NCBI GenBank assembly: GCA_030390025.1
Contig: CM059431.1
Coordinates: 128,466,001-128,530,000, forward strand
DNA length: 64,000 nucleotides
Source: Squalus acanthias
Taxonomy: Eukaryota
Reading direction: 5' to 3'
Shown: positions 6,371 through 24,683 of the stretch, piece after piece
How positions within the stretch are numbered: the first letter of the stretch is position 1
Layout: each line of letters begins with the position of its first letter
Made by a program: the position numbers and the translations under genes
Notes under the pieces: generated by a model
The model's input: only the letters and a program-made list of their open reading frames with translations
What the model was told of the DNA's origin: nothing
The model's database searches: none

Positions 6371-7977
6371 TGTAAGGGTTGCGTGTCTCAGACGGTGCTG
6401 GTGCGAGGTTAGGCCTTTGTTGCCTAATACCATTGCTTGCTCTGGTCTCCGGCCAGCCTTATTGCAATAAGCACCTGTGAGTGGTTCGACCCACTCGTAC
6501 TTACGGTTCTAACACTGGACTTAGGTGCAGGGAGCAGTAATGCAGAGAAAACTCAAATAGACCAGGTTGAATAGTACAAAATGGAAATCTTTATTGCATA
6601 GCGTCCAAAATCATGAAGTACATGTCATAGGCGCAAATTAACGAGAGTACAAGTATACATACATTCATAAAGCTTGGTCTATGGAAATGAAGAACACACG
6701 GCACATCATAGAAAGGGGAACACATTATATCTTAACCTTAAAAACCACCCTCCCTTAACAATACCTACACTACGTCTAGATTTGTAGGATCTGAAAACAT
6801 GCTCACCACTCGTGTTACTTCGGAGAATTTTAAAGTGAGGCACTCAGCTCGTTTCGCTGCAGCGCCTGACTGTCACGTGTTTGGAAGGGTCTCTGTACCC
6901 CACTTGTTTATTTTCGCTGCTGCGACAAGCAGGCCAGACTCCCTGTTGTCATGAAGAACTCGACGGACCTCAGACACAGTTCAAAGAAGAGTCTTCCTGT
7001 GCTCGATACCGGTTGTCGGTAGATTTCAATGAAAAGTTCTTTATTTATATTTTCGGGCGCGGTCGGGGTTTACTGACTGTGGCGGCACGTGGATTCTTCT
7101 CCTTTTCTTCTCGTCTCATCTCGTCTCTTCAGGCCTCCGGGTCCAGACACCGTTTACCGACACTCGGGATGGTGCACCCTGTTACTTGCCCTTGTCGGGG
7201 CGGCTCGTTCCGATTGAGCTCCACCCAACACTCCAATTACCGACCAGTACGGCTAAGAGTCAAGAGTCAACAAAGTCCAGAGAAAACACAAAAGTCCAGC
7301 CCTAAGAAAGAGCTTCAGCAATGGTCCGCTGAGAGATAAGAGACTGATGGACATTTGTTGTCTATAGTTATAGTGCTGTGTTCCCTTATCTCCCGCTCAA
7401 ATCTTAATGTTTGTCCTTTGTGTAATATTGGCGCTCAAAACTCCCAGCATGGGGCGATTCTTCTCTCTAACGGGTTTCGGTAGCACCTGAAACTGGCCAA
7501 CTATCCGTTAATGTTTTCCCCATTGTTGGTCCAGCCAGTAGTCTCCCTGACTGGTTTTGGGGCCTCCCCGAATACTGACTTAATCACCCGTCAATGTCTC
7601 TCTCATTGTAGAGCCGTGGGGGTATTTGTGTATTGATGTGTCTGGATGGGCCTTCGATTGCCCAGTACAATGATCCTTACTTGTGCATGGAAAACGATTC
7701 CAGCACTTATATCTTTGCTATTGTTCCAAATGCAAACGGGTTGCATCCTGTCTTTATCAGTGTTTACCGAGTATGCTCCAATCTTATATTGAATGTTTAT
7801 TCGACGCCATCTTGTCTGCCCACTGTATTTCTGGAAGCTTCTGCCACGATGCGCGGCGGCCATTTTACAGGCTTCTGTGTCCTTTATTTTCAGGACAGCA
7901 TTTTGTTTAATAAAACTGATCAAACGAGTCTGCTTCTCTCTCGTTATTTTGAATCACGATAATTGCGAAACTTTACA
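6371..7977 (-). repeat. 3' LTR (1607 bp)
   Basis: TGTAAGGG...CTTTACA; direct repeat of 19822-22174; minus-strand AATAAA at ~6590 and TATAA-like motif at ~7370. Confidence 0.95.
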
Positions 7978-8374: not shown

Positions 8375-10711
8375 TTACGCGGTACTTTCTTTGTTCACGC
8401 GCACGTAACGTTCTCTCCACTCCCCTGTGTTCTCCTGCTTTGTGAGGCGTTTGCCTCTTTTGCAGTGTCCGACTAATAGGTACACTACAATTACGACTTG
8501 ACACACTACCAAAATGTGGGAGGCTATCCTGATCTATGAAGGAACTTCAATATTATTGAACAGATCCCACCACGGTGGGATTACTATGTCCAGTATCTCT
8601 GTCCCTATCTCTACAGTCTTTTGTTCCAGGGTGTAAAAATGTTTCTGTGATACCATGACGGCTTTTAAAATCTTGGTGAGGTGTTCAGGGAGAGGGGGAA
8701 TGATGTATCTGAAATGCGCGACGAATCGCTGCAAGTCTGTGAAATTCTCTTTTACAGTGAGGTGAACAGTGGATGGTTCAGGGATCGGGACAATTCGCTG
8801 TTGTGCCACTTGAACTTCAGCCCTGGGTTTAAAACAGAAACTGCTGTCACTCACCGGACACCGGCTGTGCTGTCCATGCTGGTAGTGTTGTGCTGCAGTG
8901 GTAACGCAATACGTTCCACCCCCTATGTATGCCACCTGCGGAGGTACATGATCTTGTGTCATTGCTTCCATGGTGCAATTCATGGGTTTCGCGCTAGCCG
9001 TTCTGAACCCGCATTGTGGTGTTAAAAAGGCATTCAAGTGCTGGGGACACAGGATGATGTGTGCTCCCCGGGCACGACAACCTGTCATCGTTTGCTCCCA
9101 GCGGATGACGTAAGGTGGGACCGCTGCGTAGCGAATGTGGGCTCCCCCCTGAATGACACCAATGTTCTCCACCCGATACACCGGGGCGGGCTTTGCTGTG
9201 TCGCCCAACTCCGGCATCCGTAGTACTATACCCATGATGGTATGATTTGACCGTCCGCAGTCCACGGGGACTGGGTATGCCTCTGAGGCTAGCCTGAGCT
9301 GGCACGGGCTTAATGCGTTCTGAAAAGGGTGGAGCACCTGCAGGTGTTTGTTACTTATCCAGGACGGGACCAAACCTTGTTTTAAATCCTCCAAATTACT
9401 GCGGCCCTCGCCCAGTAACCACGCCCCGTATAGTACGCACACCTCGTTCTGCGCAGCTTGATCGGATGCGTTCCGATCTTCCCTGATCAGGGCACTTACC
9501 GTTCTCGCATGCTACTCCAGCTCTGCTATAATCTCTTTTAAGTGTAGTGTCATGGCCTGGTCCTTGTGTAACTCAGACCCTACTAATGTGTTTTCGCTTG
9601 TGAGGATGCTTTTTAACTGTGTTTTTAAACCGTTGATCTGGGTCTGCAGCTCCACGTTGTCTAGAGCGTTGACCACAGATGTTCCCGTATTAAAAGCAGT
9701 GAACACATCATTCACAACACCCCTTCTTTTTCTCCCCACCTGACCCAAAACTTCGTGTGGTGTGGTGTACAAGCTTGTTTTGTCAACCTCTGCAAAATCA
9801 AACTCATAAAATTGCCTGAACATGTTTGTTAACAGGACCTGGTATAATTGTTCCGTTTCTTTGGGACACCACTCTGGTAAATGCACCTCGGTGAGGTTTA
9901 GTATCACCGAGGCCACCGCGTAATGTACCCCCTGATACAGTATCTGATCTGTTGGCACCAGTACCAGACCATTCCCGGGCCCCTTAGTGGCTTTAGGGCA
10001 CCCTTCCTCCTGAGCCAAAGCCACCGGAATCGTGGGTGGAGACTTGCGTGGGCGCGTGATGAGTTCAGTGGCGTTTACCGGGATCGGGGAGAATGGAGCT
10101 CCGCACCCCTTTGTGCTGACATCCCACCTCATCCCTTTCCCGTTATCCTGCCACTGGTGTACGAAAAATATGGATATACCCTTGGGGCAAACGTACTTCG
10201 ATCCCCACATACAAACATATATTCCCTCATCCGGTTCCCACCATTTGTCCCAACAGACTTGCAATTGTCCGTTAGTCCCCGTAATTGTCCGATGGGTATT
10301 GTTACCCAATCGCTCGCACTCAGCCGAAGAATTTCTCATAGTCTTGCTTAACTTCCGTAACCACCACCATCGGCTCAATGGGACCTTCCCATTGCATGTC
10401 AAACAAATCCTTTTGCCGACGGTGACGCTGATTCTGGGTGCAATGATCCTCACTCTGGGGCACAGCAAAGAAGTCTCTTTGTAGGCAAATTCGGATGCCC
10501 TGGAGTATTCCGTCGAATTCGTTCCCAGCCATCCCGGCCACCTTCCCTTGTGGAAATAAGTGGCGGTTTCCTCGACCTCTCGCTCCCCGGTCCCATCCGT
10601 CGCGATGGGGCCCGTGTCCCCGGAGCAACCGAACACAACGACATCCTTGGTGAGGCCCCGATAGGCCAATCCATATCCGATCATTGCGAGCACTATCAGA
10701 ATCCTTTCCAT
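8375..10711 (-). pseudogene. env: env: class I fusion glycoprotein (~778 codons; in-frame stops at 9512-9514 and 8534-8536)
   Basis: One frame throughout: signal peptide MERILIVLAMIGYGLA, furin site RKRR (9722-9733), heptad LDNVELQTQINGLKTQLKSIL, Cys-rich region, TM IASHILVVCQVVIVVYLLVG after the second stop, basic cytoplasmic tail. Confidence 0.88.
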
Positions 10712-11431
10712 CTTTCCTGGTTCCTGTGATCAGATAAAATGATGTAGCCAGCCTCCCAAGAGTCTCTGGCTTTTGTGAAGGGTGAGCGGGTCCCTTGACC
10801 TCGTCTCACGTAAAAAGACATGTATGCTGGATAGACTTTAACTATTCCTATCACTAACTCCCATCATTTTACCATTTACTTTTAAAAATAAACTACAATC
10901 TTACCAAACTTAAAACACTATGGGGGAAAAATTCAGTTGGTTGCGCCTCCCATTAGCGCCTTAAGAGGGCGCTAATGGGGCGCAAAGCAGCTCGGGCCCG
11001 GGCGCAGCGATGTTTGCGCTGCTCGCGAACTTAACTAGACATTTTGTGGCGGCGCTAAACTTTATCGCCGCGATCTCCTGCGCGCGCAGATTGTGACGTC
11101 ATACGAGAGTGCAACGCCCTTGTGACGCCCCGGAGCAGAATTTCTGTGGCGCCCCCATCCTTACCACCTGGCGCATCCAATGACCGGAAGAGTGGATCGC
11201 TAACAATCGCTGTGGGGCTGGGGGGGGCGCTATTTAAAGGTGGCCTCTTCCTGTCTTTCTCTGTGGTTGACATTTTTGCACCACTCGTTCTGAGAGAGAG
11301 AGAGAGATTCGGAGAGAGAGAAAGAGAGACTTCTGCATTGAGTCAACGCTGTGTGAGTTAGTTTTGGCTACTCATCCTAACTTCGCTGGTACTTTGGTTT
11401 CTGGCCTTCATAACTTTGCTTGCTAAGAGAT

Positions 11432-12461
11432 ATGGGGGCTGCACTGATGGGGGGCGTCGTCCTGCGCCAGCTGAATCGGAGGAGACAGAGACGCAGAGAG
11501 AGAGTGGCAATGATGGCCAGACGGAGGAGGGCCAACAGGCGTCTGTACAGGAGAGCTTACTCTCCCAGGGTACATCGTGAACAGCTCTCCTACATTCATA
11601 TGTCTGATGAGCAGTGTCTGCGAAAATGCGCTTCAGCAAGGAGGTGGTCACTGAGCTCTGCCATCTGCTGCAGCCAGATCTGCAGCCTCAACTGAGGTCC
11701 AGGACGTCTCTGTCTGTGGCAGTGAAGGTCACAGTGGCTCTGAACTTTTATGCTACTGGCTCATTTCAATCTGCTGTTGGGGACATCGCCAATATCTCCC
11801 AGTTCGCGGTGCATTGCTGCATCAGGAAGGTCACAAATGCCCTCTTTAAAAGGAGACGAGAGTTCATCTCTTTCCCCATGACCCCAGATAAGCAGCAAGA
11901 ACGCGCTCTGGGCTTTGCGAGGATAGCGGGCTTCCCCATGGTGCAGGGCGCCATTGACTGCACGCATGTGGCTTTGTGTGCTCCGCATGAGAATGCCGAG
12001 GATTTCCGGAACAGAAAGGGGTTCCATTCCTTGAATGTTCAGTTGGTCTGTGACCACAGACAGCTGATACTCGCTGTCAATGCCCACTATCCTGGCAGCT
12101 GCCACGATGCTTTCATCCTGCGCCAGACTACTGTGGCAGAACTTTTCGAGGCACCGCATCAGCCATTTGGTTGGCTTCTCGGGGACAAGGGGTATCCACT
12201 GAGCACCTGGCTGATGACACCACTCCGTACGCCCAACACCCCTGCTGAGCTGCGGTACAACGAGAGCCATCAAGCTACCAGGAACATCGTGGAGCACACA
12301 ATCGGCGTGCTCAAGCAACGGTTCCGCTGTCTCGACCATTCTGGAGGAGCCCTGCAGTACTCGCCTGAGCGAGTTTCCAACATCGTAGTTGTGTGCTGCA
12401 TGCTGCATAACATGGCAATCCTCAGGACCCAGCCAATGCCACCAGGCCTTGGAGCACCACC

Positions 12462-12492
<31 letters not shown>

Positions 12493-12591
12493 GAGGAGGA
12501 TGATCAGCAGCAGCACCAAGGCGTGAGGGCGGCCCACAATGGTGAAACTGCAAGGGCCGTCCGTCAGCGGCTGATAGCAAGCCGCTTCTAG
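11432..12591 (+). pseudogene. Harbinger DDE transposase (HARBI1-like), one frameshift at ~11623
   Basis: GAIDCTHV, YPGSCHDAFIL, LLGDKGY, VEHTIGVLKQRFRCL, CCMLHN, acidic tail; adding one A in CGAAAATG joins the two ORFs. Confidence 0.9.
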
Positions 12592-12902
12592 GCCCCTGCT
12601 GTGGAAATGGCTTCTGCCATTGAGAACAGCATGAATGAACCCAACACGCAACCCCTAAGCCGGCCAAGGCACCAATGATTCCAAACACCAAACATGTATA
12701 TTTTGAGTACCAAAACTTATTTATTTTACAAACTCTGTGTGTGTCATTTCTTCATGACAAACTCATACAAATAAACACAAAAAAACAGTAATTACCATAA
12801 CTGGTTCTCACAACCTGGAGATCATGTGCAAAACACTCAACAAAAGTTTGACCACGAACCTCGGCCTTTAATAAAAAAATGACCAGCATTTTGTCACACC
12901 TC

Positions 12903-14746
12903 CTACATCGAGGGTGAACTCCTTCCCGTGCGCCTTTCCCCCCTTCTTACCCTACTGCTCCTCCGCAATGGGACCTCAGTGGCTGCAGCAAGGCTGGTGG
13001 AAGGCTGCTGACTGTCAGGCCCTGACAATGCAGATGCCCTTGAGGGACGGCCTCGACCAGTTCTGGGCCTGGAGGGCCCGGCTGCAGACTGCACCAACTC
13101 TGCATGGGCGGCAGCAGTCTGTCCTACAGGTGGTGGCAACTGCAGTGGAGAAGTGACAGTGGTGGCAGCAGGAATGCTGTCATCTTGAGCGAGGACAGCA
13201 ACTCCCTGCTCGACCGGCACACTGGCACTCCCACGGGGCAGCACCTCAGCATCCGGAGCAATCTGCTGGAGCACAGATTGCTGGCCTGCTGCGGCACGGT
13301 GAGAGCCCCGGGGAAATGTGAACGAACCAGCGAGGATGGTAGCAGACAGTGCTCGCGTGACCTCAATCTGAGTCTGCATGAGAGCAGTCTGAGATTGAAT
13401 TGCAGCACTGAGCTTCAGTGTCGCATCCGCCTGCGTTGCTGCGAAGTGCTCCACACTCCTTGCCAGTGCTTCAATGCATTCGGGCACCCTACCCACTGCA
13501 GCCATGAGCTCAGTGTGCATGCCCACCGCCTGGGTGTTCATTTCCGCGATCAGCCGCTCCTCCTCTGCGTCCAGTGCAGCAGGACTCGCTGGCATACTCT
13601 CCCTCCGGGGAGAAGGCCCCCGAGCTTCCCTACCCCCATCGCGTTGCTGCAGCCCGCTGGGTCCTGGAGCTTCACCCTCATCAGACCCTTCCCCCCTGCT
13701 CCCCTCCAGGGAAGGCGTGTTCCCAGTGTCGGCATGGGCTTCCTCGGGAGAGGGTGGCACTGATGCTCCGGCTTCCTCTTCCTCCTCGGCTGCAGCTTCA
13801 CTCCCACTGGCAGCTTCAGGGCCCGTCTCCTCAGCTGGTGAATCACCATCTGAAAGCAGGGAGGTACAAGAGTGGCTTTAGCGTGAGGACAGGGTGGCAG
13901 TAAGGGAGGAATAAGTGCAGCGAGTTAGTAAGTTGGATTGAAAGTGTCAAAGGCTGGTGTTGTGAGGGACAAGTGGAAGGACAGAGGACAAAAAGGTGAT
14001 GACCTTACCATTGCTGTCCAGAACGGGGTCGGCGTCTCCAGTGGTGACGGGACCGATCACTCGGCTTGCCACAATCCTGTGGACGCGCTCCTCAAGATCG
14101 CTGAGGGGTTGCAGCTGAGGCCGCCCTCCACCCGTCCGTTGCTGCTGTCTCCTATTATGCGCCAGCTTGGCCTGCAAGAAAAAGGACGGCGTCTGAGTAA
14201 ATATACAGCCATGGTCTTGCCTGATGTGCCTCCCATAGGTGAATAGCCCTTACTGTATACAGCCATGGTCTTGCCTGATGTGCCTCCCATAGGTGAATAG
14301 CCCTTACTGTATACAGCCATGGTCTTGCCTGATGTGCCTCCCATAGGTGAATAGCCCTTACTGTATGCAAAGTATGGAATGTGTGTGTGTGCTTCATGAA
14401 AGGGCCATAGGTGTTGGATGAGTGTTGTGCATTGGGGTTTTAAGACCCTCTGGCCATAGAGTGAGCTTGAGATGGAGGGATGGAGAGGTATTGCAAAAAA
14501 GCCACTTACCCTGACGACCCGAGTGAGGTCGTTGAACTTTTTCCGGCATTGGACATGGGTCCTGGGCACCATGCTCCTGGAGGAGACGCGCTGAGCCACC
14601 TCCCTCCACACTCTTCTGTAGTCGCGCGGCAAAGGCCTCCTGCCACTCTCTGGGTACAGTATTGGTCTTCGGCGCTCCACCGCGCCAACCAGAGCATCCA
14701 AGGCCCGCTCGGTGAAGCGCTCAGCTCGTTCTCTCACCCTCTCCAT
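12903..14746 (-). CDS. Harbinger Myb/SANT-like DNA-binding protein, 3 exons (14746-14510, 14171-14009, 13849-12903), 448 aa
   Basis: RFTERALDALV...W..VA..V...RT..QCRKKFNDL, then TGGG; canonical GT-AG sites join the exons in frame (237+163+947 nt). Confidence 0.82.
14203..14366. repeat. 54-bp tandem repeat x3 in intron 1 of the Myb-like gene
   Basis: ATACAGCCATGGTCTTGCCTGATGTGCCTCCCATAGGTGAATAGCCCTTACTGT at 14203, 14257 and 14311. Confidence 0.95.
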
Positions 14747-15167
14747 CCTTGGCTGGAAAATGGATTCACAGGTCTCTCCAGGCCGAGATTCAAGGCTGCA
14801 ATGAGCAGGGTGTGGCTGGGGAGCAAGATCGCCCCCCCACTTTAAGAACTGGCCGGCGCCAGTGTGTCTGTGTTCCCTCGCTAACTGGCAGCACCTTCGC
14901 TGCGCTCGCGCTCTGAGTTAGCGCCTCACTCCTCGGCCTTTGCGCCTTAAGACAGGTGTGCAGCGCCTGATTTAGCACTCCAATTACCTCCCGGGGCGTT
15001 AAAAGTGAAGTTTCCAGTCAGTGGCGATAATTAGCGCCAGGAGCTAATTTTTGTGCCCGGACGATATTTGCGCCCCAGACGGGGCGCGACTGAATTTTTC
15101 CCCCCTATAAACTTAAACTTATCCTAAACTTAACTGTACTGCGCCGCCCGTTCCCTGGGCGGCCTAG

Positions 15168-18100
15168 CTAAATTCTGCGAAGTCTGCCACGAGCTTTTCC
15201 CAGTGGCAGGGGGGCACTGACCTCTTCCTTTGATCTGCCGCAGCCTGTCGCCGCTTCGCTGGGACTGGGATCTCCCTGGGCTGCCTTGAACTTATGCCTG
15301 GGGGTGTGCAAGGGATTTGGCCACAACTTCCTGGGCTGGGGTGTCCGACTTGACCTACGGAGGGCTACCTTGGGCAAGATTTCCAGGGCCGACGGATCGG
15401 GAACCGAGACTTCCACTGTCACGGCCTGTGGTCCCACCACAGCCGCCGGCTCCGTCTCTCCTGGCTCCGCCCCCCTGAACTCGGGATTTGCAGTTTCTGA
15501 CTCCACCCTACTTGTCTCTCCAGTATGTGGACCTCCACTCGCAATCCCTATCTCCCCTATGGGCAAGACTTCCAGGACCGACGGACCGGGCACCGAGACT
15601 TCCACCGTCACGGCCTGTGGTCCCACCACAGCCGCCGGCTCCGTCTCCCCTGGTTCCGCCCCCCTGGGCTCGGGATCTGCAGTTTCCGACTCCACCCTGT
15701 GTGGAACTCCACTCGCAGTCCCTATCTCCCCTAAGCTTGGGTCGAGGGCGAAACCTTCGTCCTCCGACCCCACCACCTCTCCGACCGGGTCACTACCTTG
15801 GTCGAGCTCTCCGAGCTCTTCCTCATCTGAATCCCAACCCCAAGAAAAGATCCTACACTTTTCCAGAATGTCCTCTCCCCTCAAGCAGGCTGCTTTACCG
15901 GTCTGTGTGCCCTGCGGTTCTACCCGGGGCTGAGAGTCCCCACTCGCAGGTTTGGCCCCTGTGATTGGCCCCTGTGCACCCGGTTTATACAGCTTGCACT
16001 GGTTAATGTGGAACCATTTTGTGCGCCGGGGTACCTTCACGGCGTACACCATGGGACTCGCCTTATCTACAATACTGTAGGGTCCCATATACAGCGGTTC
16101 CAAACTCCCTACTCTGGCATAGTTCCTAACCATGACCTGATCTCTGACTTCCCACTCCTGCTTCTTACGGGGTTCCAACAACAGGCGATTGTCCTGGTGC
16201 TGTCTTCCCATGTTCCCAGCCGCCTGCTCGTAAACCTGCTTCAGGCGTTCCAAGAGGGTCTGGACAAACTTGTCCCTTTTCACCTCTTGGAGCTTATCCT
16301 CAGTGAGCACCGGGGCTAGTACATGGGTGGGGGTTCGCATGATCCTCCCAGTCATCACCTCGTACGGGGAATACCCCGTACTCTTCGACTGGCTAGCCCG
16401 GATCCCCATGAGGACCTCCGCCCATTTTTGGGGCGAGTTCATAGTCTCTTTCCTCAGTTTCTCCTTGAGGGTCCGGTTCATGCGTTCAACAATCCCTGAT
16501 GACTGGGGATTGTGCGCTACGTGCCACTTCCCTTCAATGCCCAAAAGCATGAGGGTGTTCTGCATCACCTGGCCAGTGAAATGACTCCCTTGGTCTGACT
16601 CCACGAAACGGGGGAGTCCCCACCGCGAGAACACTTCCCGGACCAAGATCTTGGCAGTACCCAGCGCCGTAGCTGTTCTACAGGGGAAGGCTTCTACCCA
16701 TTTGGAAAACACATCCACCAAGACGAGGCAGTATTTGTAGCCTCCCTGGGTGGTGGGCAGGGGCCCTATGTAATCGATCTGTATCGACTGCCATGGTCCC
16801 TCCACCCTCCTGATGTGTCCCATGTGCACTTTCCTTTTCTGGGGGTCTGGGTTGTTTGCAGCGCACACAAGACAGCTTGCACAGAACTCGCGGACCTGCT
16901 CCCTGAGTCCCGGCCACCATCCCGCCTGCTCTACCCGTTGCCAGGTAACCTCAGGCCCGGGGTGTCCTGCCCCCGGCCCCTCATGAGCCAACTGGAGGAA
17001 CTCCCTCCTGTGCTGCTGCGGCACAACTCACTGTTCCTCGCGGAACAGCATGCCTTCTTTAACGGAGAGGGTTGCCGTACTGTACGGGCCCTCTACCTGC
17101 TTGCCCTCAGTAATCGTTCTGAGAACTGCTTTTAGGGCGGGATCCTGGTTCTGGACGGTCTTAAGGTCTAGGGGCAGTGCTACCCTGGTGTTCCCGGGAT
17201 TCCCTTCCCTGCCTTGGATCGCTGCCACGGGTCCGGGTCCATAGGGGTCCCAGAAAATGCCGTTACGGGCACCCTCCCTGGCTAGCGCATCCGCCTGCTG
17301 GTTGCCCTCCCCGCGGGGTTCTGTGGAGGAGTGAGCTTTCACCTTATGGATGAAAATCTCTCCTTCCTCCCCTACTGCTGCTGCTAAGATCTTTTCCAGC
17401 AAGGGCTTCACCGTTAAAGGTCGCCCGTCCGCGGAGGTGTATCCGCGGCGGGACCAAATGGCCAGGTATTCCGTACACGAATTGCACGTAAACATACTGT
17501 CCGAACAAATCGTGTATGGGGTTGGGAAGATCTCTGGGTGGGTAACTACATACGCCACCGCAGACAGCTCAGCCTGCTGCGCGCTCATCGTGCTGGGGAG
17601 TTTAATTGCCAGGGCAAGGTCTGCCGCAGGGTCATAAACTCCACACCCTGTGAGTCGTTCGCCAGCGGACACTGTGCTGGAACCATCAACATAAATCTCG
17701 CGACCTGTGGGCTGTATCCCGGCCCGCAAACCTATGTTGACCTCCCACACCCCTTCCACCGAACACCGGTGGGCTGTTCCGGGGTACACCAGGTTGGCCG
17801 TGAGCTTGGGCTCGCAAAGACCTTTAACTCTAAGATCCATCTGGGAGAGGAGAAGGGTCCAGCGCGCAATACGAGCGCTGCTTACGGTCCCATCCTTAAT
17901 CCTCCCATCCAGAAGCATCTTGGTTGTCGTGTGATGGGTGAGGAGAGTGATGGGAGAGAGCCCTGTGAAGATCGCTGATCTTTTCACAGCCCAATGCGTG
18001 GCTAAAAGATGTCTTTCGCAGCTGGAAAAACTACTCTCCACATCCGTTAACACCCTGGATGAATAGACAACCGGCCTCAGCTTGCCGTGACGCTCTTGGA

Positions 18101-19751
18101 GCAGCACAGCGCTCAAGCTGTCCCCGCTGGCAGCTACCTCCAGGAAAAACTCCTTCCCCCCATCTATGGCCCCTAAAGCTGGCGCGGTCTGCAGATCCCT
18201 TTTTAACTTCTCGAATGCTGCCTGACAACCCTCGTCCCAAGACCACTCCACTCCCTTATGGAGGAGTCGGAGCAGCGGAGCTGCTGTGGCCGCATAGTCC
18301 TCGATGAAGTCTCTACAGTAACCGGTCAGTCCCAGAAAGGACCTCACACCCGTTATGGTGTTGGGAATCGGTAACTCCTGCACCGACTCCCTCCTAGCCT
18401 TATCTATGGCTCTTTCCCCAGCGCGAATGGTCAGACCCAGGAATTTTACTTCCTGCTGACCGATCGCTGTTTACTTAGGGTTAACTTTAAAACCCTTTCT
18501 CCCTAGCAGCTCCAATAACTCGGCTAACAGTGGTCCATGCTCCTCCCTTGAGTCCGTGAACAGGAGCAAATCATCCACGTACTGCACTATCTGATTGGGC
18601 TGACTAAACTCCTTTAAACTTCCTGCCATACACTGATGGAAAATACTGGGGCTGTTGTGGAAACCCTGTGGCAAACAGTTCCATGTGTACTGTTGTCCTT
18701 TGAAAGTAAAGGCAAACTTGTACTGGTCCTCTCGCCGCAGCGGGATGGACCAAAAACTGTTCGAGATATCCAGCACTGTGAACGTGGTCGCGGACGCTGG
18801 GATACTCCCTATTACGTCAGCAACTGCTGCTACTGTGGGCGCGCAGGCGGGGATGTTACTGTTAAGGACTCTGTAGTCCACCGTGGCCCTCCACTAATTA
18901 TCCGGGTTCACGTGTGTGGCTATCGGTCTCAACACGCCCTGCTGCACCAATGAGGACATTGCTGTCTCCATGTCGGGTTCTGCTTCTTTGGGGAAGTTAT
19001 ACTGCTATTGGGGCCGGGTCATGGGGTCCCCGTCTATGCTGACCTCAAACCCGGTAACCCTCCCACAATCGTGCTTGTGTGTTGCAAATGCGTGCATATT
19101 ATCTGACACGTACGCTTGCATGTCCGTTGGGACATCTGCGACCATAAGCTCGAGGTCGTATCCTCCGGATGGCTTCATGGTACACAGGGCCCCTTTACCT
19201 TCCTTCCCCGGGACTACAACTACCTTGCCTTTCCCACCCTTGGCTCCCCAGAGACAGTGATTCCTAAGGTCCACGAGGATCCCGTGTTCCGCTCGGAGAT
19301 CCGATCCGAGGATACCTCTGCCACCCCCCTCCTGCCATTTCATCAGTATGCACTTCCATGTGGTGTGGAGTGCTCCTAAATGAATGGAGAGCGGAATGGA
19401 GAACGCACCAGCCTGCTCTTTTCGAGTGAACCCCGCTAATGTGAATGGGACCTTGGTAGACAGTGGTGAGTCAAAGGGGCTATCCGTATGAATCACGGTG
19501 CATGAAGCTCCCGTGTCCAACAAATAACTACCCTTCTGCTTCTCTACCTCCATCTCAACCAGGGGTCTTTTCCACGCATCATAGCTGAGCGGACACAGGT
19601 AGACGGGCTGCACGGGCTCTAGCCATTGGGTACTGGTGGACGGGGTTGTGACATCTGTGGGGCCGGTAGCGACTGCCACCCTCCCTTGCGAAATCATAAG
19701 GGACCGCATAGCTCCCAACATTGATTCTATCGCATCGGGATGGATAGGCAC
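15168..19751 (-). pseudogene. pol: pro-pol (PR, RT, tether RH, RNase H, IN), single frame with four internal stops
   Basis: LLDTGAS; LPQGFHNSP and YVDD; YVDGSS, SAQQAEL, SDS, VKAH, GNQQADALA; HHCC, IDYIGP, SDQG, VERMNR, GPY; stops at ~19005, ~18895, ~18471 and ~17028. Confidence 0.93.
15370..15735 (-). repeat. Tandem duplication (~60 codons) in the integrase C-terminal extension
   Basis: GEIG.ASG.PH...RVESETA.PE.RGAEPGETEPAAVVGPQAVTVEVSVP occurs twice. Confidence 0.9.
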
Positions 19752-19798
19752 ACCAGCTCCTCTCTAAGGGTCTAAAACATTACTCTCCTGCTGACAAT

Positions 19799-19821: not shown

Positions 19822-22174
19822 TGTAAGGGTTGCGTGTCTCAGACGGTGCTGGTGCGAGGTTAGGCGTTCGTTGCCTAATACTATTGCTTGCTCTGGTCTC
19901 CGGCCAGCCTTATTGCAATAAGCACCTGTGAGTGGTTCGACCCACTCGCCCTTACGGTTCTAACACTGGACTTAGGTGCAGGGAGCAGTAATTGCAGAGA
20001 AAACTCAAATAGACCCGGTTGAATAGTACGAAATGGAAATCTTTATTGCATAGCGTCCAAAATCATGAAGTACATGTCATAGGCGCAAATTAACGAGAGT
20101 ACAAGTATACATACATTCATAAAGCTTGGTCTATGGAAATGAAGAACACACGGCACATCGTAGAAAGGGGAACACATTGGGCCGAAAATTGATCCCGGGA
20201 CGCGAGAGTACGCACTGCGTACTCTCGCGTATTCCCACTCCAATTGCCGGTTTTCTGCATGCCCTGCGCATGCGCTGAAAACCGGCAATTGCTCTTCTGA
20301 AAAGGGGGCGGGTCCTCGGTGCATCGCGTGCGCGCTACAGGCTGCGCGCACGCTGTGCACTTCATACTTTGGATGCGCAGGTAAGTACTGAAGATTTTGG
20401 AAATGTAAAAAGGAGGAGTAAGACCCACTTTTAAGAAGGTAAGTAGTGAATTAAGTATTTTTTGAATTTTTTTTAACAGGTATATCTTTTTTAGAGACTT
20501 TAAAGACAGGTAAGTTTATTTTTATAACTTTTTAAAAGATTTTTAATTTTTTCAAAAATTTAATTTTTTATTTAAAATGGTTAATTTAATTAACTATACT
20601 TATTTTATAAATGTGATGGTTTTTTTTTTAATTTAATTGAGGTTTAGCTGTTATTTTGGGGGGGTGTAAGATTCATAGATTTCACAGCAGGTCTGTGAAA
20701 CTTATGAATGGAAGATGGTGTGCTGCCATTGGCTCTAACTGAGTCACGTGATCCCACAGCTCGCACGAATTCACTACGCCGGTGGGATACGCAAGCACTG
20801 CACAGCAGCTGTCCAGAACATCAAGTTCGTGCGAGCTGGATCTGAAAAAGCACAAGCGAGGTGAGACATCGCGGGGAAGGCTTACCCCCGCGGGAACAGA
20901 GCGAGATCAATTTCTGGGCCATTATACCTTAACCTTAAAAACCACCCTCCCTTAACAATACCTACACTACGTCTAGATTTGTAGGATCGGAAAACATGCT
21001 CACCACTCGTGTTACTTCGGAGAATTTTAAAGTGAGGCACTCAGCTCGTTTCGCTGCAGCGCCTGACTGTCACGTGTTTGGAAGGGTCTCTGTACCCCAC
21101 TTGTTTATTTTCGCTGCTGCGACAAGCAGGCCAGACTCCCTGTTGTCATGAAGAACTCGACGGACCTCGGACACAGTTCAAAGAAGAGTCTTCCTGTGCT
21201 CGATACCGGTTGTCGGTAGATTTCAATGAAAAGTTCTTTATTTATATTTTCGGGCGCGGTCGGGGTTTACTGATCGTGGCGGCACGTGGATTCTTCTCCT
21301 TTTCTTCTCGTCTCGTCTCGTCTCTTTGGGCCTCCGGGTCCAGACACCGTTTACCGACACTCGGGATGGTGCACCCTGTTACTTGCCCTTGTCGGGGCGG
21401 CTCGTTCCGATTGAGCTCCACCCAACATTCGAATAACCGACCAGTACGGCTAAGAGTCAAGAGTCAACAAAGTCCAGAGAAAACACAAAAGTCCAGCCCT
21501 AAGAAAGAGCTTCAGCAAGGGTCCGCTGAGAGATAAGAGACCGATGGACATTTGTTCTCTATAGTTATAGTGCTGTGTTCCCTTATCTCCCGCTCAAATC
21601 TTAATGTTTGTCCTTTGTGTAATATTGGCGCTCAAAACTCCCAGCATGGGGCGATTCTTCTCTCTAACGGGTTTCGGTAGCACCTGAAACTGGCTAACTA
21701 TCCGTTAATGTTTTCCCCATTGTTGGTCCAGCCAGTAGTCTCCCTGACTGGTTTTGGAGCCTCCCCGAATACTGACTTAATCACCCGTCAATGTCTCTCT
21801 CATTGTAGAGCCGTGGGGGTATTTGTGTATTGATGTGTCTGGATGGGCCTTCGATTGCCCAGTACAATGATCCTTACTTGTGCATGGAAAATGATTCCAG
21901 CACTTATATCTTTGCTATTATTCCAAATGCAAACGGGTTGCATCCTGTCTTTATCAGTGTTTACCGAGTATGATCCAATCTTATATTGAATGTTTATTCG
22001 ACGCCATCTTGTCTGCCCACTGTATTTCTGGAAGCTTCTGCCACGATGCGCGGTGGCCATTTTACAGGCTTCTGTGTCCTTTATTTTCAGGACAGCATTT
22101 TGTTTAATAAAACTGATCAAACGAATCTGCTTCTCTTATGTTATTTCGAATCGCGATAATTGCGAAACTTTGCA
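19822..22174 (-). repeat. 5' LTR, containing a 742-bp MITE
   Basis: Collinear with 6371-7977 except for the insertion at 20179-20920. Confidence 0.95.
20179..20920. mobile_element. MITE (Harbinger-type) inserted in the 5' LTR
   Basis: TIRs GGGCCGAAAATTGATC / GATCAATTTCTGGGCC; TSD ATT; absent from the 3' LTR. Confidence 0.88.
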
Positions 22175-24683
22175 TTCACCAATCTTTTTCTCTTCACAAA
22201 TATATAGAAGCTTTTACAGTCAGTTTTTATGTTCCCTGCAAGCTTACTCTTATAATCTATTTTCCCCCTCTTAATTAATCCCTTTGTCCTCCTTTGCTGA
22301 ATCCTAAACTGCTCCCAATCCTCAGGTTTGCTGCTTTTTCTAGCTAAATTATATGTCCGCTCCTTAGATCTTATGCTGTCCCTAATTTCCCCTGTTATCC
22401 ACAGTTGAGTCACCTTTTTTGTTTTATTTTTATGCCAAACAGGGATGAACAAATTTTGTAGTTCATCCATGCGATCTTTAAATGTTTGCCATTGCCTATC
22501 CACCGTCAACCCTTTAAGTAATGTTCCCCAATCCATCCTAGCCAATTCGTTCCTCATACCATCGTAGTTTCCTTTGTATAAATTCAGGACCCTAGTCTCT
22601 GAGTCAACTACTTCACTCTCCATTTTAATGAAGAATTCTATCATATTATAATCGCTCCTCCCCAAGGGGCCTCGCACAATAAGATTGCTAATTAATCCTT
22701 TCTCATTACATAATACCCAGTCTAAGATGGCCTGATCTCTAGTTGGTTCCTCGACATATTGGTCCAGGAAACCATCCCGTATACACTCTAGAAATTCCTC
22801 CTCCACAGTATTGTTACTAATTTAGTTAGCCCAATCAATCTGTAGATTAAAGTCACCCATGATAACTGCTGTGCCCTTATTGCACGTGTCTCTAATTTCC
22901 CATTTAATGCCATCCCCAACCTCAGCATTACTGTTTGGGTGTCTGTATACAACTCCCACTAACGTTTTCTGCCCCTTGGTATTTCTCAGCTCTGCCCATA
23001 CAGATTCCACATCATCAGAACTAATATCCTTCCTTACTATTGTGTTAATCTCCTCTTTAACCAGCAATGCTACCCCACCTCCTTTTCCATTTTTCCTGTC
23101 CTTCCTGAATATTGAATACTCCTGGATGTTGAATTCCCAGACTTGTTCCTCCTGGAGCCATGTCTCCGTAATCCCAATTATATCATATTCGTTTACATCT
23201 ATTTGTGAAGCTAATTCATTCACCTTATTACGAATGCTCCTCGTATTAAGACACAAAGCCTTCAGGCTTGATTTTTTTAACACTCTTAGTCCTTTTAGAA
23301 TTATTTTGCCAGAAATTCGGGTCTCCACGGGTGAGTACGCGTTGGGTACTCACCCTAAGACCCAACGAAAGTGCCAGTTTCACGCATGCACTGCGCATGC
23401 GCTGGAAAACGGAACTTCCATTCCCCTGAAGGAAGGGGTTCAGAGGTTGAATGCGTGCGCAGGAGAGACAGCATGCACGCAGCGAACTTTTTTTTTTCAG
23501 GTTTCCCCGTGAGGGTAAGTACAGAGAAGCTGCGCGGCGAAAAAGGTGGCGCAAGGCCTGCTTTTAACAAGGTAAGTGGTGAATTAAGTACAATTTAAAC
23601 ATTTTTTCAAACAGGTTTATCTTTTTTACATACTTTAAAGAAAGGTAAGTTTATTTTTAGCACCGTTAAAAAGTGTAATAAATTTTTTGTTTAAAGTAGT
23701 TAATTTATGTAATTTATAGTTATTTTAAAAATGTGATTTTTTAAAAAATGTATTTGAAATTTTAGTAAGGGTTTGGGTCCGATCTGTATTCATAGATTTG
23801 ACAGGTCTTCCTGTCAAAATCTATGGATGAAGATTCCCTGCTCCGATTGGCTCTCCATGGCCCACATGATCCCAGGGGATGCTTCGAACTAACTGCGCCC
23901 CTAGATATGCAAGCACTGCGCGTCGGCAGCTGCAGGAGGCCCAGGAGCCGAATTCCACGTGGGCCCGAAGCACAATGGCAGGCGCGGTATATAAGTAAGC
24001 GTGTGATTCTTGCACCTGCGTGAAGCCGGGGAGCCGAATTTCTGGCCCATTATTTACTGTGGCTCTGTTTGATTTACACCCTTGATTCTCTGCCTTCCAC
24101 TTTTGCTTTTCTCCTTCTGTCTTTTGTTTCTATCTAGCTTCCCTTTCCTCTGTCTCCCTGCACAGGTTCCCAACCCCCTGCCACTTTAGTTTAAACCCTC
24201 CCCAACAGCACTAGCAAACACTCCCCCTAGGACATCTGTTCCAGTCCTGCCCAGGTGCAAACTGTCCAGTTTGTACTGGTCCCACCTCCCGCAGAACCGG
24301 TTCCAATGTCCCAGGAATTTGAATCCCTCCCCCTTGCACCATTCCTCTAGCCACGTATTCATCTGAAATATCCTTCTATTTCTACTCTGACTAGCATGTG
24401 GCACTGGTAGCAATCCTGAGATTACTACCTTTGAGGTCCTATTTTTTAAATTTACCTCCTAACTCCCTATATTCAGCTTTTAGGACCTCATCTCGTTTTC
24501 TACCTATGTTGTTGATACCGATATGGACCACGACCTCTGGCTGTTCACCCTCCCCCCTCAGAATGTTCTGCAGCCCCTCAGTGACATCCTTGACCCTGGC
24601 ACCAGGGTGGCAACATACCATCCTGGTATCACATCTTCGGCTGCAGAAACGCCTGTCTGTTCCCCTAACTATTGAATTCACTA
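22175..24683 (-). mobile_element. CR1 LINE, 5' half (ORF1 esterase, APE endonuclease)
   Basis: IIGITETW, IMGDFN, ILDWVL; ORF1 SGNH-esterase-like HIGINNIG and DSLHL; joins 6370 across the provirus. Confidence 0.9.
23306..24048. mobile_element. MITE related to 20179-20920
   Basis: TIRs GCCAGAAATTCGG / CCGAATTTCTGGCCC; flanked by ATT; same size (~743 bp) and internal layout. Confidence 0.82.

Follow-up and report, generated by a model that had tools for sequence, protein, structure and literature searches.

The window analysed here, a 64,000-nucleotide stretch of the Squalus acanthias genome (assembly GCA_030390025.1, contig CM059431.1, positions 128,466,001 to 128,530,000), holds a retroviral provirus whose envelope gene (env) lies on the minus strand. 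The Env protein encoded by this gene carries an immunoglobulin (Ig)-type signature near its N-terminus. We propose that residues of about 83-195 form an Ig-like head that probably binds a receptor and that a Pro-rich linker connects to a class I fusion core. Taken as a whole, this is the best explanation of the data, and we give it a little better than an even chance.

An Ig-type signature near the N-terminus of Env

Env residues were numbered from the ATG at position 10711 on the minus strand, the strand of all env features given below. An earlier note on this DNA, made from the letters alone, had marked an Ig-like signature at 10157-10453. This interval corresponds exactly to residues 87-185, and the signature was confirmed by its motifs, their spacing and their conservation. 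The motif strings quoted in that note were all present in the translation of residues 87-185, namely ISVTVGKRICLTC, which contains C106, WWW at 115-117, LQV at 150-152 and DEGIYVC, which ends at C167. The cysteines of strands B and F in an Ig domain are expected 55-75 residues apart; C106 and C167 were separated by 61 residues and were invariant in 18 of 18 aligned sequences. A strand C Trp, expected about 10-15 residues after the first Cys, was represented by W115-W117, 9-11 residues past C106. The D/E-x-G-x-Y-x-C motif was found as D161-E-G-I-Y-V-C167 and the strand D Arg as R141, at a Trp-to-Arg spacing of 25 residues.

The alignment behind these counts comprised 14 sequences from the S. 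acanthias genome, representing about five subfamilies, and parts of four proteins from other species, with identity down to 50%. Over a block of 123 residues the 18 sequences required a single one-residue gap. Invariant positions were C103, C106, W117, C153, G163, Y165, C167 and C175, and position 161 was Asp or Glu in all 18 sequences. C84, W115, W116, W132 and R141 were nearly invariant, the window copy being an outlier at position 132, where it has Cys in place of the Trp of its relatives. The cysteines of the domain lie at 84, 103, 106, 153, 167 and 175. The pattern C-x(8-14)-W-x(35-60)-[DE]xGxYxC, which was defined post hoc, occurred in 5 of 20,000 residue shuffles of the window Env, and [DE]xGxYxC alone in 81 of 20,000. 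Six-frame translation of the 64-kb window gave two occurrences of [DE]xGxYxC, one of them in the env domain. Conservation among the aligned relatives is stronger evidence than rarity in shuffled sequences.

The earlier note had proposed that the ratio of nonsynonymous to synonymous divergence (dN/dS) be compared across copies. Synonymous divergence (dS) between subfamilies was mostly saturated, and dN/dS was limited to three subfamily pairs with unsaturated dS, for which values of 0.10, 0.12 and 0.26 were obtained in the domain, indicating purifying selection where it could be measured. Because the block is conserved and dN/dS is well below 1, a chance or non-coding origin of the domain was ruled out. 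The dN of the domain (0.26-0.34) was about twofold that of core residues 346-500 (0.09-0.17), as would be expected of an exposed binding part. Columns assigned to strands in the structural model described below were less variable than those in loops (mean entropy 0.67 vs 1.05, Mann-Whitney p 0.007), and the most variable stretches were the B-C, C-C', D-E and F-G connections.

We then examined what profile, language-model and structural searches returned for the domain. A Pfam scan, also proposed in the earlier note, returned Ig families alone, all of them below threshold. Residues 87-185 (99 residues) matched Ig_3 with an E-value of 0.013 and ig with an E-value of 0.69, and the 123-residue block of the window matched Ig_3 at E 0.0079. 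Matches to Ig_3 were seen in 12 of 14 members at E<=1, the best at 1.9e-4, and each spanned profile positions of about 6-74 of 78. Neither a non-Ig family nor an Ig family beyond Ig_3 and ig was returned for the domain in the 14 members at this cut-off. When a profile of the domain was searched against 177,635 PDB sequences, the IgV domain of CRTAM was the best match (E 0.0047 and 0.0079; profile positions 14-106 against chain positions 7-98), with CD8 alpha, neurotrimin and VEGFR1 lower down. A single-sequence search of PDB returned an antibody VL alone (E 1.2), and PDB profile searches with alignments bearing long overhangs gave no matches. In a protein language-model search, the ten best named clusters for the window domain were all Ig I-set or V-set (0.91-0.93), and the nearest named clusters for a relative 50% identical to it were likewise Ig (0.83-0.86). 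Structure prediction, another proposal of the earlier note, gave an all-beta AlphaFold model for the domain of a sister copy (18-row alignment; pLDDT 61.2, pTM 0.55). Its strands fell at the positions expected for A', B, C, C', D, E, F and G, and its top structural matches were V-type Ig domains.

A number of results weigh against an Ig fold. Scores for Ig_3, wherever bits were given, were 12-17, as compared to a curated cut-off of 30, and the Pfam V-set family (PF07686) had no match at E<=1 in the 14 members. In the PDB search that found CRTAM, an unrelated ArfGAP1 zinc finger was matched at E 0.017 through a CxxC patch, and hhalign against 14 host V-set exons aligned 20 columns in the A'-B stretch with a probability of 2.6%. 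The first AlphaFold model, built for residues 21-250 from 12 aligned rows, reached a pLDDT of only 43 and formed neither an F nor a G strand; Foldseek returned nothing useful for it. With the domain model, Foldseek found no match at E<=0.001; the best in PDB was at E 0.067 (TM-score 0.36-0.44), and the best among viral models was UL6 of human cytomegalovirus (HCMV; E 0.0067, TM-score 0.45). Finally, a patch of the form [IV]C[ILFV][TQ]C is the sole feature that the domain has in common with two otherwise unalignable types of Env head, and it may have a role of its own. Motif, spacing and the weak searches agree on a domain of Ig type. The V-set subtype assigned in the earlier note was not supported by Pfam or hhalign, against which stand an IgV domain as the best PDB match, the Trp-to-Arg spacing of 25 residues and the V-type structural matches. 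The support for an Ig-like fold agrees across methods but is moderate, and with a confidence to match we consider it quite probable that the domain adopts such a fold.

The head and the conserved core

Env opens with a start codon and a hydrophobic, signal-peptide-like N-terminus (residues 1-19; 10655-10711), the signal peptide being judged by eye. This is followed by a conserved sub-region (residues 20-82; 10466-10654; ...GCSG..., RWPGWLG-NST...) that is kept in relatives and that showed three strands at pLDDT 57-65 in the first AlphaFold model. The Ig-like domain, delimited by motifs, alignment, profile searches and the model, occupies residues 83-195 (10127-10465) and encloses the interval of the original signature. 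A linker spans residues 196-245 (9977-10126), with an N-glycosylation sequon and the Pro-rich stretch APFSPIP...PRKSPPTIP at 205-229, and it is the most variable part among subfamilies. Further sequons at 65, 127 and 137 are inside or beside the domain. The N-terminal placement of the domain in the earlier note, ahead of the Pro-rich linker and the fusion core, was correct, except that a 62-residue sub-region (20-82) intervenes after the signal peptide. The core starts with an 'F2-like' segment (GPGNGLVLVP...NLTEV...C282; residues 246-330; 9722-9976) that aligns to shark and eel Env-like proteins and ends in a basic cleavage-type site, RKRR (residues 327-330; 9722-9733). The remaining fusion subunit (residues 331-725; 8537-9721) has a polar fusion-peptide-like stretch, a long helical heptad region, a Cys-containing middle and a second heptad region, the heptads being recognised by eye.

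Distant Env-like relatives matched the window Env from about residue 221 onward only. In a protein of 644 residues from the eel Anguilla anguilla (P0023), residue 10 aligned with residue 228 of the window Env (E 8e-13; C-terminal half 2e-07), indicating that the core follows the signal peptide directly in the eel, with no head. A protein of the shark Mustelus asterias (P0014) had the core in common from residue 207 (E 1e-58), and its N-terminus was different and Cys-rich. Within the S. acanthias genome, such a core was found with a second type of head, of 267 residues and Cys-rich (L051, L055 and L061), and with another type that was short and Cys-rich (L059). By these sequence comparisons, the head is an addition to a conserved core.

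At least three other Cys-rich heads that cannot be aligned with one another were observed (L051/L055/L061, L059, and the shark proteins P0013, P0014 and P0016), each filling the position that the head has in the window Env, behind the signal peptide and before a Pro/Thr-rich linker, on a homologous fusion core. Comparison of head types by profile revealed no similarity beyond [IV]C[ILFV][TQ]C (hhalign E 0.03-0.04 over 13-20 columns). The heads as diverged copies of one domain was an idea that found no support, as the CxxC patch alone aligned. Between L038 and L041, dS was 0.12-0.17 in the head and 0.57-0.60 in the linker and core. Since dS in the head was far below that downstream of it, this suggests that heads have been exchanged by recombination between env subfamilies.

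The first 399 Env residues, searched against the 3.7-Gb S. acanthias genome, yielded 8,295 first-look candidates, of which 104 were scored. These were 93-100% identical to the query, and 90 of them had no stop in that stretch; an uninterrupted env of 783 codons was present in 7 of 20 loci examined. Several subfamilies were found in this genome, 50-66% identical to the window type in the domain, some with frames open over 790-800 codons. Identity between subfamilies was 36-56% in the linker, as compared to 82-88% for core residues 346-500. Among public proteins, the head was present in the skate Rhinoraja longicauda (74-77% identity), in the sawshark Pristiophorus japonicus (54%, within a chimeric zinc-finger gene model) and in the whale shark (43%, in a gene model also holding pol pieces), and further head-bearing sequences were found among Logan and JGI records. 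The head thus occurs in rays as well as sharks. In P0004 and P0008 (P. japonicus) and P0007 (Rhincodon typus), Env fragments were joined to host genes or pol pieces under names such as 'Niban 1-like' and 'zinc finger protein ZFP2-like'; these fusions are probably annotation chimeras spanning endogenous retrovirus (ERV) insertions.

The env copy in the window is itself decayed. Its frame runs from the ATG to a stop at codon 400 (9512-9514), which is read through in sister copies, and continues in the same frame to a second stop at codon 726 (8534-8536). The second stop stands directly before the membrane anchor of the sister copies, so that the anchor is lost from the window Env. Relative to one intact sister, 30 of the first 544 residues are substituted in the window Env, which also has the two stops and, near residue 545, a small deletion that keeps the frame.

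A candidate receptor-binding head and its alternatives

We suggest that the domain would be an Ig-like beta-sandwich stapled by three predicted disulfides, C106-C167 at its centre, C103-C153 linking strands B and E, and C84-C175. With the N-terminal sub-region included, the head measures about 215 residues. It follows the signal peptide and precedes the first conserved strand of the fusion core, and the glycosylated Pro-rich linker ties it to that core. As the element has one envelope gene only, this head is most likely a receptor-binding module. Contact with the receptor would be made by loops that vary between subfamilies (B-C, C-C' and F-G), and binding would then release the fusion core after cleavage at RKRR. 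The head is exposed, being N-terminal, bearing sequons and hanging on a Pro-rich tether. It evolves faster than the core yet under constraint, varies in its loops and is replaced wholesale between lineages, and relatives show that the core can exist without it. A receptor-binding module is the best-supported reading of this pattern.

An Ig-like head may instead serve mainly as a structural cap or glycan shield of the pre-fusion core, with the core itself contacting the receptor. The eel homologue is headless, so that the core can presumably act alone; the three N-glycosylation sequons within the domain or next to it would also suit a shield. We consider this fairly improbable, given that heads on a conserved core are wholly different between lineages and that the variable positions are in loops, a pattern that would be typical of receptor-binding parts. 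Alternatively, the domain could be a lineage-specific Cys-rich beta domain, not of Ig type, its Ig-like motifs being coincidental. A CxxC redox pair in it (C103-L-T-C106) would govern the disulfide linkage of surface to fusion subunit, which is the role of CXXC in the surface subunit (SU) of gamma-type retroviruses. Three unalignable head types have [IV]C[ILFV][TQ]C alone in common, every Ig match was sub-threshold, and six conserved cysteines are more than an Ig domain requires. However, the CX6CC partner of such a pair was absent in four of four Envs, the head region examined in L059, a fourth head type, was without CxxC, and no non-Ig family emerged from Pfam or the language-model search. 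Moreover, the Trp, the Arg, the acidic residue, GxY and the second Cys are conserved at Ig spacing, and a redox domain of this kind is in our judgement unlikely.

The earlier note had read the domain as captured from the host Ig superfamily (IgSF) and acting as a receptor-binding or immune-decoy head. In one form of this reading, a captured host exon would act mainly as an immune decoy or modulator that mimics a host ligand or receptor, rather than in entry. The first 399 residues were searched against 1.84 billion representative proteins, and 20 matches were obtained. All those covering the head were Env fragments or gene models containing them, and no cellular IgSF donor was among the 20; P0010, P0011, P0017 and P0021 matched residues 283-399 only. 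The domain profile gave five matches among longer proteins, all Env and none a cellular IgSF protein, which is weak evidence since the search was of the best 8,000 candidates by shared words. The claim of a captured host domain was not borne out by these searches: capture from a host gene is possible but unsupported and, if it happened, would be old or heavily overwritten.

A captured host domain working mainly in immune evasion seems to us distinctly unlikely. In its favour, CRTAM, the top match in PDB, pairs with nectin-like molecules, and HCMV UL6 came closest among viral folds (E 0.0067), large DNA viruses being known to carry captured Ig domains. The domain is nevertheless fused in frame to a fusogen and is kept in every subfamily, which fits entry, and the element is without any other attachment protein. 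Ig-like glycoproteins of large DNA viruses include herpesvirus gD, the HCMV RL11 family and poxvirus IgSF proteins. The likeness to the domain lies in a V-like Ig core on a viral membrane protein, with UL6 the best viral match to the fold though not a significant one (E 0.0067, TM-score 0.45). Unlike the domain described here, those glycoproteins are separate proteins and not part of a fusogen.

That ERVs can acquire IgSF genes is illustrated by CrocERV31, a crocodilian ERV that carries a captured nectin-3 in place of env, and which is the nearest precedent in print as far as the accessible part of that report goes (PMC4299795). In both elements an IgSF-type sequence under purifying selection is found at the env position. 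According to the same portion of the report, env of CrocERV31 has given way to a complete host mRNA with three Ig domains, at about 76% identity to the host gene, whereas in the window element one domain lies inside a complete env and its donor is untraceable (PMC4299795).

The fusion core, the provirus and known envelopes

The earlier note had called the core an F-type fusogen. Read by eye, it opens with a short N-terminal subunit and RKRR at 327-330. A long helical region comes next, then a middle of about 250 residues that contains cysteines, and finally a second helical region by the anchor. The stretch after RKRR is rather polar, and in a sister copy a hydrophobic anchor lies at about 734-756. 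This layout, again as judged by eye, would resemble that of paramyxovirus F rather than a retroviral transmembrane subunit. Eleven Env sequences or fragments, among them those of the shark and eel relatives, gave no match to PF00523 (fusion glycoprotein F0) at E<=10, and a profile of 12 whole Envs matched no PDB chain and hence no F protein. The F-type assignment was therefore not substantiated. Paramyxoviruses and pneumoviruses carry the attachment function on a separate protein (HN, H or G). The core shares with their F proteins the order of its parts, by eye, but the searches yielded no match to F in sequence or fold, and in the window Env it is the small subunit that carries a head, fused to its N-terminus.

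Gammaretroviral SU consists of an N-terminal receptor-binding domain, a proline-rich region and a C-domain, and the structure of the receptor-binding domain of Friend murine leukaemia virus (MLV) was reportedly described by Fass et al. in 1997. The window Env resembles this arrangement in having an N-terminal beta-sandwich head (as predicted here) followed by a Pro-rich linker, with a lineage-variable head and a conserved fusion part. To our knowledge, the MLV head has no Cys-Trp-Cys Ig signature. Gammaretroviral Env also differs in its short p15E-type fusion subunit with CX6CC, whereas the heptad regions here are about 250 residues apart and none of the four Envs checked had CX6CC in the fusion subunit. 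CXXC (C103-C106) is present, and a gamma-type CXXC/CX6CC system was rejected on the absence of CX6CC from these four Envs.

The remaining parts of the provirus were identified by Pfam and by mapping on a sister copy. The 3' long terminal repeat (LTR) is at 6389-7977 (minus strand), and its repeat pairs with the 5' LTR are 97-99% identical. The 5' LTR (19840-22177, minus strand), recognised by repeat pairs and sister-copy mapping, is interrupted by about 740 extra bases at 20178-20920 that are absent from the 3' LTR and from the LTRs of the sister copy, which are 1.69 kb long and 99% identical. The pol region (15114-19768, minus strand) encodes protease, reverse transcriptase (RT), an RNase H-like tether, RNase H and integrase, the last with an H2C2 zinc domain, a core and an SH3-like domain in Pfam. 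RT_RNaseH_2/RT_RNaseH followed by RNase_H, that is, a dual RNase H, was found both in the window pol and in the sister copy. Searched against PDB, pol was about equally near to Ty3 (3e-66) and gammaretroviral RT-RNase H (1e-59), and the integrase was nearest to foamy virus. The frame of the integrase has a long low-complexity C-terminal extension with a 152-base tandem duplication (89% identity) at 15371-15711.

No gag is present between the 5' LTR and pol in the window provirus. In the sister copy L021 (2582-8953), gag (626 codons), protease and RT-integrase share one frame with two in-frame stops between them, which suggests that at least the first of the two stops may be passed by read-through; the gag of 626 codons had no Pfam match. 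Between pol and env of the window lies a PIF/Harbinger-type transposon (10919-15114) that is not retroviral and is absent from the sister copy. It was identified by Pfam from a DDE_Tnp_4 open reading frame at 11611-12591 (plus strand; E 5.2e-41) and a Myb/SANT-like one at 14057-14917 (minus strand; E 9.2e-09), the latter containing a threefold repeat of 18 residues. The provirus has lost about 0.8 kb at this site, and the junction contains a segment of 91 bases in inverted orientation.

Lokiretroviruses also have a single env behind a pol with an RNase H-like tether and RNase H, and their Env, too, combines a signal peptide and basic cleavage site with heptad regions and a membrane anchor. For the core of the window Env there is an Env-like homologue in Anguilla (E 8e-13), a genus given as positive in the available text on lokiretroviruses (PMC7947760). 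The difference is the head of about 215 residues that is placed here between signal peptide and core: the Env model of Wang and Han (2020), in the part of the paper at hand, has only sp, fp, cc, tm and RXKR (PMC7947760). A salmonid lokiretrovirus Env is given there as similar to PF00523 (E 2.2e-7), and the supplementary table lists lokiretroviruses in 0 of 6 cartilaginous-fish genomes and in 3 of 3 eels (PMC7947760). The whale shark and two bamboo sharks are among the negatives of this survey as far as its accessible text goes, yet Env sequence of the window family is present in a gene model of the whale shark and in a protein of a bamboo shark; the pol lineage may be a different one, or the screen may have overlooked it. 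The element is lokiretrovirus-like in its env and its dual RNase H, but we have not filed it as a member of that group.

The words 'immunoglobulin' and 'Ig-like' were absent from the accessible text of the lokiretrovirus papers, including PMC7947760, so that the published lokiretrovirus Envs, for which the earlier note had asked, have no Ig domain mentioned in those texts. Full-text literature searches found no ERV envelope with an Ig-like domain in fish or among elasmobranch ERVs, and no captured Ig-like receptor-binding domain. Lokiretroviruses are named in passing only in a 2026 review of ERV structures and in a preprint on envelope-carrying retrotransposons. The remark in the earlier note that no retroviral Env of this layout was known holds within these searches and the lokiretrovirus texts available. 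Ig-like heads on viral glycoproteins and Loki-type Env are each of an already known kind.

We suggest tentatively that cartilaginous-fish genomes hold a large, recently active retrovirus-like group in which an F-like core bears interchangeable, recombining heads, one of them genuinely of the IgSF. Receptor switching has its textbook example in retroviral envelopes, none of which, as far as the searches above go, is described with a canonical Ig-type head. If our reading is true, an IgSF head for receptor binding would be seen here for the first time in a retroviral Env, and the family would illustrate in nature how a bare class I fusogen gains and exchanges a targeting module. The range of Env of the lokiretrovirus type would also come to include sharks and rays, in which the accessible part of the published survey had none (PMC7947760). 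Should the fold be confirmed, a type of core common to negative-strand RNA viruses would have gained a targeting domain by N-terminal fusion, and many natural copies would be available for comparing how binding is coupled to fusion.

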